Shown one piece after another: positions 6,084 to 7,592 of a stretch of DNA of 64,000 nucleotides. Origin of the DNA: Oribacterium sp. (GTDB lineage Bacteria > Actinomycetota > Coriobacteriia > Coriobacteriales > Eggerthellaceae); NCBI GenBank assembly GCA_963592435.1, contig CAVAWT010000007.1:1297-65296 (forward strand), given 5' to 3'. A model generated the notes under the pieces. The model was not told where the DNA came from and made no database searches. It saw only the letters and a program-made list of their open reading frames with translations. How positions within the stretch are numbered: position 1 is the first letter of the stretch; each line of letters begins with the position of its first letter. The position numbers were made by a program, and so were the translations under genes.

Positions 6084-6839
6084 ATGTCTATTAAGAAAAC
6101 ATGGGACTTTGAAAAGGTGATAGCATCAGCAACTGATGCTGTGACTGCAATCCCAGCTGATAATATAGGTAGTCCAGCAAGTTTACCTGCTCAGTTAACT
6201 GAGAAGGGTTACGACTTTGTACCTCAGTCAAAATTGACTGGCACTTATGGTGGTGTGACTTGGGGCAGTCAGAAATTCACTGTTCAATGGAAACTTCAGC
6301 CAGCGGGCGGGGTTCCTGCGAGCATGCTTAAAGCTGTAACAACTGATACTGTTAGATCTCAATTTCAACAATTGTTGAAAGCTAACGGTTTGACAAAAAA
6401 TAATTTCGAAGGGAAAATCATTTCGGCTAGGACGATTCAAGCGATCGTTCAGACGGTAATGATCTTTATTCGTGCTAGATTTGTTATTTATGTCGATCCT
6501 TCTGGGGAAACTTCGCTTCAACTATATGACCAAGGTGATGTTGAATATTCATCGATAGGAAATTATGATTACCAGATTACTGACGCTGCATCGAAATTTA
6601 CTGTTGATAATTTCAACACAGTGATGGGGCGTGCAGTGGCTTCCTCGGTATATAACATAAGAATAAGGAAAGAAGACTTTGCTGTAACGTACACATGCAC
6701 ATCGTCAAGCAGCAGTTGTTCATCATCGTCGTCGAGTAGTTCTTCATGTAGCAGTTGTTCATCAAGCTGTTCTTCCTCGAGCTGTTCGTCTAGCTGTAGC
6801 TCGAGCATCTTTATTGCATATATGAATTTAGGAAGATAG
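6084..6839 (+). CDS. Ser/Cys-tailed protein 1 (35-residue pure Ser/Cys tract + 'IFIAYMNLGR' terminus)
   Basis: ATG 6084 follows 'AAGGTGAAGG'; the track starts at GTG 6075. The tail reads ..YTCT-S5-C-S9-C-S2-C-S3-C-S4-C-S3-C-S3-IFIAYMNLGR*. It is a paralog of the next ORF. Confidence 0.75.
   Translation: MSIKKTWDFEKVIASATDAVTAIPADNIGSPASLPAQLTEKGYDFVPQSKLTGTYGGVTWGSQKFTVQWKLQPAGGVPASMLKAVTTDTVRSQFQQLLKANGLTKNNFEGKIISARTIQAIVQTVMIFIRARFVIYVDPSGETSLQLYDQGDVEYSSIGNYDYQITDAASKFTVDNFNTVMGRAVASSVYNIRIRKEDFAVTYTCTSSSSSCSSSSSSSSSCSSCSSSCSSSSCSSSCSSSIFIAYMNLGR
6702..6806 (+). other. Coding low-complexity tract: 35 consecutive Ser/Cys codons (6 Cys)
   Basis: Codons read directly: tcg tca agc agc agt tgt tca tca tcg tcg tcg agt agt tct tca tgt agc agt tgt tca tca agc tgt tct tcc tcg agc tgt tcg tct agc tgt agc tcg agc. 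Confidence 0.95.
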
Positions 6840-6854
6840 GAAAGGTGATGTAGT

Positions 6855-7592
6855 ATGGCTGAGAGTCTTGAATTTACATATGATACATTAATTGAGTACA
6901 CGATTAGTCAGTTCAAAAATTACTATAAAAACATAGATTCAATTAGTTCTTCTGAGATCCACAATAGTATTTTGAATTACGAGAAGGTAATAAATGTGGA
7001 GGGAGCAGGCATCAACGATGGTCCCGTATCTCAACCGCGAAATAGCGGAGGGAAGAAGAGTACTGTCAAAGTTACAATCAAGGGCACGGCAGCGACTTTG
7101 CCTTCAGTGGTGACTTCTAGCACCTTAAAGACATATTTACAAAATAACACAAAAACTATAACTAAAGTGTCAAATTTGACAGATACAGTTAATGCGAAGG
7201 GTCTTCTTGCATACCTGCAGTTCATCGATTACGTTTTAAAAACAAGCACAATCATATTTAAGACGAAAAATGATATGACGGACCAGTATGGTTACCCATG
7301 CCTTAGCTCATCGTTGCCAACGTATACAGGACTCTATCTTGATCAGGACAAGGATAACAAGATCAAAGCAGATGACTTTAAAAGCTTGACCAACAACTTT
7401 CAGTATGTTGCTCAAAAATATAGTCCTTTCTTGACAACTGCATCGTTCACTCCGAATGTCACTAGTTCCTGTTCTTCGTGTTCTAGTTCTAGTTCTTGCT
7501 CCAGCTGTTCTTCTTCGTGCAGTTCGAGTTGTAGTTCATCAAGTTGCTCTTCTTCTTCTTGGTTTATCGCATTTATGAATTTGGTCGGCTAG
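6855..7592 (+). CDS. Ser/Cys-tailed protein 2 (32-residue pure Ser/Cys tract + 'WFIAFMNLVG' terminus)
   Basis: ATG 6855 follows 'GGAAAGGTGATG'. The tail reads ..NVT-S2-C-S2-C-S5-C-S2-C-S3-C-S3-C-S4-C-S4-WFIAFMNLVG*. It lies 23 nt upstream of the first radical-SAM gene. Confidence 0.75.
   Translation: MAESLEFTYDTLIEYTISQFKNYYKNIDSISSSEIHNSILNYEKVINVEGAGINDGPVSQPRNSGGKKSTVKVTIKGTAATLPSVVTSSTLKTYLQNNTKTITKVSNLTDTVNAKGLLAYLQFIDYVLKTSTIIFKTKNDMTDQYGYPCLSSSLPTYTGLYLDQDKDNKIKADDFKSLTNNFQYVAQKYSPFLTTASFTPNVTSSCSSCSSSSSCSSCSSSCSSSCSSSSCSSSSWFIAFMNLVG
7464..7559 (+). other. Coding low-complexity tract: 32 consecutive Ser/Cys codons (7 Cys)
   Basis: Read directly: agt tcc tgt tct tcg tgt tct agt tct agt tct tgc tcc agc tgt tct tct tcg tgc agt tcg agt tgt agt tca tca agt tgc tct tct tct tct. 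Confidence 0.95.

Follow-up and report, generated by a model that had tools for sequence, protein, structure and literature searches.

Two adjacent genes with serine/cysteine tails

The DNA analysed here is a stretch of 64,000 nucleotides of contig CAVAWT010000007.1 from Oribacterium sp. (the window). It carries two adjacent, co-directional genes, P1 and P2, whose products end in a tract made up of serine and cysteine only, and which lie directly upstream of the first of several radical S-adenosylmethionine (radical-SAM) enzyme genes, A1 (Table 1). In P1, the tract (nt 6702-6806) reads S5-C-S9-C-S2-C-S3-C-S4-C-S3-C-S3, 35 residues in all, and the terminus IFIAYMNLGR follows it directly (nt 6807-6836). 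In P2, a tract of 32 residues (nt 7464-7559), S2-C-S2-C-S5-C-S2-C-S3-C-S3-C-S4-C-S4, is followed directly by WFIAFMNLVG (nt 7560-7589). The P2 stop codon (7592) and the ATG of the A1 gene (7616) are 23 nt apart. Checked against the list of open reading frames (ORFs) and the raw DNA, the description of both tracts, both termini and the position upstream of A1 in an earlier, sequence-only reading of the window proved exact in every detail.

The start of P1 was assigned to ATG 6084 and not to the upstream GTG 6075, because its homologs begin MSIKKTWDF or MTIQKTWDF. Good Shine-Dalgarno sites precede both genes. No signal peptide or membrane segment was found in either protein by Kyte-Doolittle hydropathy in 19-residue windows, with peak values of 1.52 for P1 and 1.29 for P2, as had been expected from inspection of the letters. 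The same holds for the weak similarity of the two bodies: they are collinear, with 32% identity over 194 aa, at an E-value of 3.5 after composition adjustment (BLASTP), and despite this weak pairwise similarity both proteins fall in one family by profile.

An origin of the tracts by DNA slippage was considered and rejected because of mixed codons, short codon runs and only weak repeats. Seven to eight different codons are used in the tracts of P1 and P2, with TCN and AGY serine codons interleaved, the longest run of one codon does not exceed four, and Tandem Repeats Finder reported only weak short repeats (scores 31-56). The antisense strand of the P1 tract is itself open, as part of a 110-aa ORF (6569-6901). 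Elsewhere in the window (44441-45550), an FtsQ-like protein has a Ser/Thr-rich tail (...TTSSSSTSSSTN); since it admits Thr and Asn, this tail is ordinary low complexity, in contrast to the pure Ser/Cys tracts.

A large family of tailed proteins

A phmmer search with P1 retrieved 34 proteins built in the same way, none of which carries a name in any source. An exhaustive profile search over 1.84 billion cluster representatives, with family clusters defined at 50% identity, gave 479 clusters with E <= 0.001, of which 229 have E <= 1e-10. Among 170 members that were fetched, 166 have 8 or more Ser/Cys residues in an uninterrupted run (median 22, maximum 53), and the four without such a run look like fragments. 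A terminus of 7-12 residues follows the run in nearly all fetched members, with few exceptions. Across the family and the loci described below, tract length ranges from 9 to 83 residues; locus L014 (6081-8525) holds two tracts of 80 and 83 Ser/Cys residues, with one member N-terminally extended to 530 aa. The carrier proteins measure 189-640 aa, the body being sometimes extended to 518-640 aa.

The composition of the tracts is nearly absolute. In 3,867 tract residues from the 166 members, Ser accounts for 82.5%, Cys for 17.2% and everything else for 0.3% (12 residues); there are five Thr, one Pro, one Arg and no His. As in the window, both Ser codon families are mixed within the family tracts. 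A single nucleotide change in a Ser codon can give Thr, Gly, Ala, Asn, Pro or Arg, yet only Cys is tolerated. Since Thr, Gly, Ala and Asn lie within one mutation and are nevertheless excluded, the purity points to a constraint on every residue, as expected of a substrate and not of a linker. The number of Cys residues per tract varies from 0 to 8 and their spacing, which shows no single period, from 0 to 11; nine of the 166 tracts have at most one Cys, 71 have at most three, and some phage tracts read S20-C-S2. The terminus follows the consensus x-F(81%)-I(94%)-[A/V/G]-Y(81%)-M(65%)-[K/N/D]-[L/I], then 0-3 more residues, with variants such as [WL]TI[IV]HQDLSLL and YIVYMLI.

The AlphaFold2 model of P1 has an overall predicted local distance difference test score (pLDDT) of 72, with an ordered alpha/beta body in which 76 residues reach a pLDDT of at least 90; the tail, at pLDDT < 50, is predicted to be disordered. 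Foldseek found no match for the body in the PDB (best E 0.13) or in BFVD (0.057), with template-modelling (TM) scores of at most 0.2. A paralog without a tail also exists. As a detection control, the rule that defines a tail was applied to the other 30.8 kb of the window and to 50 kb of phage CP220, and no ORF fitted it. The tailed architecture is therefore neither chance nor the result of DNA slippage, and the tailed proteins form a large, so far unnamed family, of which a literature search found no description.

A conserved gene cassette

Gene linkage was read in two directions. From the protein side, the contexts of distant family members were fetched and read gene by gene. In every such locus with enough flank the order was the same: a gene for a partner protein of about 200 aa, designated U, one or two tailed genes, and then radical-SAM genes, which stand directly 3' of the tailed genes in L001, L003, L005, L010, L012 and the P0020 contig. 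Tails occurring widely without radical-SAM neighbours, the case that had been foreseen as speaking against the sequence-only reading, were thus not encountered in these contexts. From the enzyme side, loci were chosen by homology to A1 regardless of tails and searched over at most 10 kb, and a locus was counted as uninformative if the contig ended just upstream of the enzyme. A tailed ORF was found in 36 of the 39 informative loci: in 3/3 long contigs, 1-4 kb upstream, in 6/8 loci of species-representative genomes and in 27/28 viral loci from IMG/VR. The link between tailed and radical-SAM genes is very strong, and apart from U the tailed gene is the most constant neighbour of the enzymes. Orthologs of P2, the second tailed gene, were found in L003, L005, L010, L012, L014 and several IMG/VR loci.

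U is present in 27/28 viral loci (E 1e-15 to 7e-66), always beside a tailed gene, and its homologs measure about 190-220 aa across loci. It has no Pfam, NCBIfam, PHROG or PDB match, and no relatives of known structure were detected.

A presence/absence matrix over 18 loci defined the core of the cassette as U, one or two tailed proteins, and radical-SAM enzymes of the types A1, A2 or A3, and C. A fourth radical-SAM type, without the C-terminal Cys motif, is often present. B proteins, the F4 family, MiaB-like methylthiotransferases and carbamoyltransferases are variable accessories, with a carbamoyltransferase in only 3/18 loci. The earlier assignment of B proteins and carbamoyltransferases to the set had to be revised accordingly, since they are absent from most cassettes. 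The near-universal partner U, the predominance of phage carriers, a context of virion or surface genes and the 99.7% purity throughout the family all go beyond what had been noted from the window. A tip-domain protein, T, was suggested as a further core component by six loci and was ruled out by the viral loci, only 1/28 of which carry the tip domain. No protease and no transporter or exporter was found in the core cassette, the window island or the phage cassettes, and no recognisable glycosyltransferase in the core cassette or the window island. P1, P2, U, T and B gave nothing significant against Pfam, NCBIfam, PHROGs and PADLOC.

Some loci differ in gene content. In L047 (2126-9221), four tailed genes accompany two U genes, so duplication of the substrate module is possible. 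The L003 cassette contains two MiaB-like genes (UPF0004 + Radical_SAM) and a Cys/Met-metabolism pyridoxal-phosphate enzyme (13182-16419 and 19458-20528); MiaB-like genes also occur in L010, L015, L017 and L021 and may hint at sulfur-insertion chemistry. In L015 (10928-12940), the C-type radical-SAM gene is split into three BLAST segments with a weak Pfam Intein_splicing match, and it appears to be interrupted by an intein.

The radical-SAM enzymes

A1 is far better conserved than the tailed proteins, with 435 homologs, all unnamed, at 45-92% identity. Cysteines C12, C16 and C19 are invariant in 39 A-type sequences, and a C-terminal site formed by C291, H295, C308 and C311 is invariant in A1. 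The CxxxCxxC motif is present in nine domains of the window, and the C-type enzymes carry it within the motif FQWELWxxCNNxCxFC. The radical-SAM proteins of the window fall below the cut-off of Pfam PF04055, with 17.8-24.8 bits against 29.5 (18.9 for A1), while some A1 homologs carry a precomputed match to this family.

The AlphaFold2 model of A1 (pLDDT 91.7) gave 27 Foldseek matches at E <= 0.001, all of them radical-SAM proteins, with probability 1.00 and TM-scores of 0.33-0.57. The best match was the epimerase EpeE (E = 7.8e-7), which acts on a peptide made by the ribosome and modified after translation (RiPP), and the highest TM-score, 0.57 in an alignment over 386 columns, was to the anaerobic sulfatase-maturating enzyme (anSME) anSMEcpe. 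Further structural matches were ChlB bound to its precursor, SuiB, PqqE, a viperin-like enzyme and DesII. By its model, then, A1 is a protein of the radical-SAM fold (partial TIM barrel). This fold is compatible with a peptide as well as with a small-molecule substrate, since the top matches include both kinds. Viperin models match only the N-terminal 50-130 residues of the enzymes, with 17.9-20.9 bits against 180 (15.6-24.9 bits for the PADLOC models).

Profile searches of PDB sequences with B, the A-type enzymes, U and T gave nothing below E = 0.2. A kinase-like or GT-A-like nature of B, considered on account of its FYKIY and LLDD motifs, was dropped, as no search result spoke in its support.

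Carriers and genomic surroundings

Most carriers of the cassette are large viral contigs, and the family occurs mostly in big phages of the gut and rumen. The cassette loci in IMG/VR lie on contigs of 16-314 kb, most of them > 100 kb. T4-type markers occur on several carrier contigs, among them Gp23 capsid protein, a prohead protease of the gp21 type, NrdD and ThyX, and further markers include gp46/47-like genes and an intein-bearing RecA/UvsX gene on the 212-kb contig of L015. On the phage contig of L008 (2090-11489), TAG is a sense codon: six genes contain 54 in-frame TAGs and all end in TAA or TGA. The U and tailed genes of this locus lie within the recoded region, after giant LRR_5 proteins.

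A tblastn search of 50,697 GenBank phage genomes with two tail proteins and four enzyme versions gave no match. On the phage side the cassette is therefore known only from uncultivated phages, since BLAST detected relatives of the tails or the enzymes in no deposited phage genome. Campylobacter phages CP220 and CPt10 have been reported to contain 11-12 unexplained radical-SAM genes (PMC2853527). These were tried as members of the same system and rejected, as they show no BLAST-level relation and the first 50 kb of CP220 (L016, FN667788) contain no tailed ORF.

The gene upstream of U is of virion type in at least 5 of 10 sampled viral loci. It encodes a tail-fibre protein in L032 (PHROG E = 3e-40), a protein with a Peptidase_G2 autoproteolytic chaperone domain in L037, members of the same PHROG families in L041 and L044, and a head-tail connector family protein in L051. 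The phage tail fibre repeat PF03406 was matched by the upstream gene of L010 (24.6 bits) and of L012 (22.4 bits), at a cut-off of 22. In the window, the corresponding place is taken by T1, which has no PF03406 match and has only the C-terminal tip domain in common with phage fibre proteins: a profile built from three phage T C-termini found T1 as its sole match among 309 window ORFs (E = 7.2e-5). T1 also carries a twin-arginine translocation (TAT) signal (TIGR01409, 17.5 bits against a cut-off of 16.7), with a hydrophobic region of Kyte-Doolittle value 1.96 at aa 62-80. In L005, the closest bacterial relative, the gene order is that of the window, and a 4,540-aa counterpart of the window's adhesin precedes the cassette. 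Judged by its predicted proteins, the window holds a bacterial version of the cassette, accompanied by a giant adhesin and by a tip-domain protein of the TAT export route. The neighbouring genes suggest a virion or surface location for the tailed proteins.

Comparison with known systems

The HXS antiphage defence is the closest published analogue, with a likeness in outline only. In it, the full-size protein HxsA, with five His-Xaa-Ser repeats, is matured by the radical-SAM enzymes HxsB and HxsC and the small HxsD, and acts in the periplasm (PMC13128918). Like the cassette as we read it, HXS combines a full-size protein, a short-period low-complexity tract, more than one radical-SAM enzyme, a small partner, cytoplasmic maturation and action outside. 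It differs in having H-x-S repeats instead of a pure Ser/Cys run with a hydrophobic terminus, in its enzyme subfamilies and in its partner, and it is a bacterial defence, whereas the cassette is mostly phage-borne. HXS models from NCBIfam and PADLOC matched no cassette protein, and the tracts contain no His; the cassette does not belong to the HXS system.

To our knowledge, anSME is the one known chemistry that offers a precedent for the use of Cys and Ser but not Thr. Like the activity proposed for A1, it takes a protein as substrate and treats Cys and Ser as interchangeable through abstraction of a C-beta hydrogen, which would explain why Thr is left out. The target of anSME is a single residue within a C/S-x-P/A-x-R motif, however, and this motif does not occur in the tracts, with their single Pro and single Arg. 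Moreover, anSME has a SPASM domain with two auxiliary clusters, while A1 has only its C/H/C/C site and no SPASM match.

Ranthipeptide/SCIFF, sactipeptide and CXXX-repeat systems also combine Cys-rich C-terminal cores with neighbouring radical-SAM maturases, and SuiB and PqqE, two of the structural matches of A1, are related enzymes. In these systems, however, the precursors are short, their Cys positions are defined and the maturases are of the SPASM/RRE kind, whereas the tailed carrier is a folded protein of about 230 aa with 0-8 Cys. The resemblance to CXXX-repeat targets, which had been drawn from the spacing of Cys in P1 and P2, and that to SCIFF were not upheld across the family, in view of the irregular spacing and of the tracts with at most one Cys. 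NCBIfam gave no match among cassette proteins to SCIFF (TIGR03973, a peptide of about 45 residues with six conserved Cys), nor to the CXXX-repeat peptide and its maturase. Membership in the SCIFF/ranthipeptide, CXXX-repeat, anSME (by substrate motif) and viperin families was examined and rejected in each case.

The RiPP epimerases EpeE/YydG and PoyD come close in another respect: EpeE is the best structural match of A1, and in proteusin-type systems long precursors are modified at many residues in a row. These epimerases are not known to be specific for Ser and Cys, and the cassette lacks a nitrile-hydratase-type leader and has several radical-SAM subfamilies instead of one. Serine-rich repeat glycoproteins are surface proteins whose tracts, like those of the cassette, are dominated by Ser, and glycocins use both Ser and Cys as acceptors. 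Serine-rich repeat proteins admit Thr and other residues, which the cassette tracts exclude, and the core has no glycosyltransferase.

Proposed function and alternatives

On balance, we lean slightly towards P1 and P2 being the workpieces of a conserved, unnamed protein-maturation cassette, made up of U, the tailed proteins and at least three radical-SAM subfamilies, whose product stays on the protein and is destined for the cell surface or the virion. The tract is probably a radical-SAM substrate, as suggested by association. It is likely to be worked on by the enzymes because of its constant pairing with several radical-SAM subfamilies, its near-absolute purity through mixed codons and the fixed terminus that follows it. 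We infer from these data the modification itself and its chemistry, what part U and the terminus play, and where the protein ends up.

In the scheme that we propose, a folded body of about 200 aa would carry a disordered C-terminal tract of 9-83 Ser/Cys residues. The terminus x-F-I-A-Y-M-x-[LI] could serve as a docking handle, held by U or by the enzymes during work along the tract, with U as an adaptor or chaperone. The enzymes would treat Ser and Cys as equivalent -CH2-XH side chains, with hydrogen-atom abstraction as the first step and a chemistry like that of anSME (Cys/Ser to formylglycine) or of EpeE (at C-alpha); several paralogs might take successive or position-specific steps. Chemistry on the -CH2-XH side chain is indicated because Cys is tolerated and Thr excluded, and Cys-dependent thioether bridges are not the universal reaction since some tracts have no or one Cys. 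Unlike a peptide antibiotic, the product would not be excised for secretion. Protease and exporter are missing from the core, the fold of the body is conserved and there is a paralog without a tail, so the product probably remains attached to the protein. In phages, the protein may end up with the virion, as its gene often lies beside tail-fibre genes. In the bacterium of the window, P1 and P2 might be carried out, folded and modified, by the TAT signal of T1 and placed at the cell surface next to the adhesin; TAT export of the modified complex would reconcile oxygen-sensitive enzymes in the cytoplasm with a surface destination.

Several observations weigh against this scheme. The viperin-like enzymes (acting on a nucleotide) and DesII (acting on a sugar nucleotide) match the A1 model with scores equal to those of peptide-modifying enzymes, and hidden Markov models from Pfam and NCBIfam detected no SPASM, twitch or RRE domain, nor Fer4_12 or Fer4_14. 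On the other side stand the invariant C/H/C/C site of A1 and its 386-column alignment to anSME. The P1 model is uninformative on the tail. The enzyme clusters of L022 and L025 have no tailed ORF within 10 kb; L022 (420-16397) gathers at least eight cassette-type radical-SAM paralogs, A1, A4 and C among them, and two carbamoyltransferases, interleaved with a nucleoside diphosphate (NDP)-sugar 4,6-dehydratase, a DegT aminotransferase and a family 2 glycosyltransferase (GT2). As to location, neighbour genes are the whole of the evidence, half of the sampled upstream genes have no annotation, and the tip domain is rare in the viral loci. The original idea that the tails are radical-SAM substrates is well supported by gene association from both directions, with L022 and L025 counting against it, and modification of the tract is a putative step.

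The gene content of L022 also hints at a different role for the tract, as a mucin-like acceptor for dense O-/S-glycosylation or carbamoylation, with the radical-SAM paralogs and accessories building or tailoring an unusual sugar. Sugar hydroxyls are the classical targets of NodU/CmcH-type carbamoyltransferases, O-glycosylation is classically found on Ser-rich tracts, and enzymes of the glycocin type accept Ser as well as Cys. A Glyco_transf_8 gene lies directly 3' of the two tailed genes in L014, and A1 has DesII and viperin among its top structural matches. Such a role is a serious alternative, though an unlikely one, given that the core cassette and the window island have no recognisable glycosyltransferase, that Thr is normally an equally good O-acceptor and makes up only five of the tract residues, and that L022, the one sugar-rich locus, also lacks a tailed gene. 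The predicted disorder of the tail and the wide range of tract lengths would fit a tract that is only a flexible linker, resistant to proteases, with the FIAYM strand tying the body to a partner, while the enzymes have other targets, for example another protein (such as T at its aromatic C-terminus), a nucleotide or a cofactor. The terminal motif, with its strong conservation, does resemble a docking strand, and the tail-less paralog and the viperin-like similarities of the enzymes agree with it. Natural linkers, however, admit Gly, Thr, Pro, Asn and Ala, and the tracts remain 99.7% Ser/Cys over hundreds of divergent sequences with mixed codons; since, in addition, T is absent from most cassettes and the tailed gene is so constant beside the enzymes, we regard a mere linker as improbable.

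A C-terminal core beside radical-SAM maturases is the usual RiPP pattern, and long structured leaders are described for proteusins (PMC10858898), so P1 and P2 might be classical RiPP precursors with very long leaders, from which the Ser/Cys core is released as a small peptide or as monomer units. This is very unlikely: neither the core, the window island nor the phage cassettes contain a protease or exporter, the body is partly a high-confidence fold that is kept without the tail and sometimes extended, and a secreted peptide is less expected of carriers that are mostly large phages of lytic type. Metal or Fe-S binding by a metallothionein-like tail, possibly a cluster scaffold or donor for the radical-SAM enzymes, is the least credible of the roles considered. 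Many tracts, including those of P1 and P2, do have a Cys every 1-5 positions, and every neighbour is an Fe-S enzyme. Cys makes up only 17% of the tract residues, however, and a conserved cluster site would need more than is present in the tracts with 0-1 Cys (9/166) or up to three (71/166); Ser makes a poor ligand, the Cys spacing is not fixed, and phage tracts of the form S20-C-S2 exist.

If the tract is modified as we propose, the cassette would be a widespread, wholly uncharacterised protein-maturation system, whose enzymes are conserved at 45-76% identity and on which large phages spend 5-12 kb. Radical-SAM maturation would then extend from single sites and short peptides to long homopolymer-like tracts, with possibly new chemistry on Ser and Cys side chains, and would reach phage biology, where multiple radical-SAM genes were a puzzle. 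The cassette would belong to a known kind, the maturation of proteins by radical-SAM enzymes, and its chemistry stands a fair chance of being new. The 8-residue terminus with a Ser/Cys tract could also serve as a portable tag for enzymatic protein modification. As a bolder and rather doubtful extension, large phages of gut and rumen anaerobe communities and a few bacteria might, by a radical-SAM pathway of several enzymes, convert the poly-Ser/Cys tract into a new protein-borne polymer, such as a run of formylglycine, D-residues or ether/thioether-bridged residues, displayed at the surface of the virion or cell in the host-attachment apparatus. This would be a residue-by-residue, "polymer-level" modification without a described counterpart and the first RiPP-like chemistry in phage particles.

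The island and other genes of the window

The cassette genes of the window belong to an island at about 4.4-32.8 kb, which ends directly before mraZ (33333). It contains nine intact radical-SAM domains, two C-type domains without CxxxCxxC, eight B domains and two carbamoyltransferases, a scale unusual among cassettes. Both carbamoyltransferases have Carbam_trans_N and Carbam_trans_C domains above the cut-offs (E 2.6e-23 to 1.4e-50). The two B-C* fusions are probably non-catalytic radical-SAM paralogs, to judge from their missing motif. In the island (6000-34000), G+C content is 0.37-0.40 and so lower than in the adhesin gene and the cell-division cluster on its flanks (0.42-0.45), which suggests horizontal acquisition of the island.

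Table 1. Features of the cassette island and its flank, with positions in the window.
Feature	Position	Strand	Remarks
Giant surface adhesin, predicted C-terminal membrane anchor	31..4410	+	1,459 aa; Pfam Flg_new 1.9e-71 (8 stretches), YDG, MBG_2
T1, TAT-signal protein	4425..5336	+	C-terminal tip domain; ends ...WGAPYGGW*; accessory, lineage-specific
U, core partner	5395..6060	+	~200 aa; clusters with gene adjoining tailed gene in L001, L003, L005, L008
P1, Ser/Cys-tailed, type 1	6084..6839	+	251 aa; predicted alpha/beta body aa 1-206; tract aa 207-241
P2, Ser/Cys-tailed, type 2	6855..7592	+	245 aa; tract aa 204-235
A1, best-conserved radical-SAM enzyme	7616..8575	+	CxxxCxxC aa 12-19
B-C fusion	8571..10676	+	B domain + C-type radical-SAM domain, CxxxCxxC at aa 354; start uncertain, ORF opens 8454
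A2-type radical-SAM (core subfamily)	10680..11630	+	
C-type radical-SAM	11665..12771	+	FQWELWxxCNNxCxFC
B protein (accessory)	12783..13676	+	no Cys motif; conserved FYKIY, LLDD
B-C* fusion	13694..15778	+	C domain without CxxxCxxC, keeps C-terminal CxxCD
C-type radical-SAM	15870..17018	+	
B protein	17063..18010	+	
T2, TAT-type paralog of T1	18087..18899	+	RRDLLAG motif; terminus ...APSCVWHT*; clusters with T1 and L005 protein
A3-type radical-SAM	19007..19888	+	
BspA-type leucine-rich-repeat protein (context)	20039..21499	+	Pfam LRR_5 8.2e-45
Carbamoyltransferase, NodU/CmcH type (accessory)	21646..23217	+	Carbam_trans_C 6.7e-50, Carbam_trans_N 2.6e-23
A3-type radical-SAM	23302..24249	-	
C-type radical-SAM	24198..25328	-	
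B protein	25399..26520	+	
B protein	26552..27406	+	
C-type radical-SAM	27585..28730	-	
B-C* fusion	28935..30383	-	C domain without CxxxCxxC, keeps C-terminal CxxCD
B protein	30408..31238	-	
Second carbamoyltransferase (accessory)	31245..32834	-	Carbam_trans_C 1.4e-50; last island gene before mraZ

Further along the window (50982-54893), four consecutive paralogous secreted proteins have an N-terminal "...AYLTWT.NQTPNR" motif in common, and the last of the four carries a Flg_new-like repeat, short Pro/Asp-rich repeats and a C-terminal membrane anchor.

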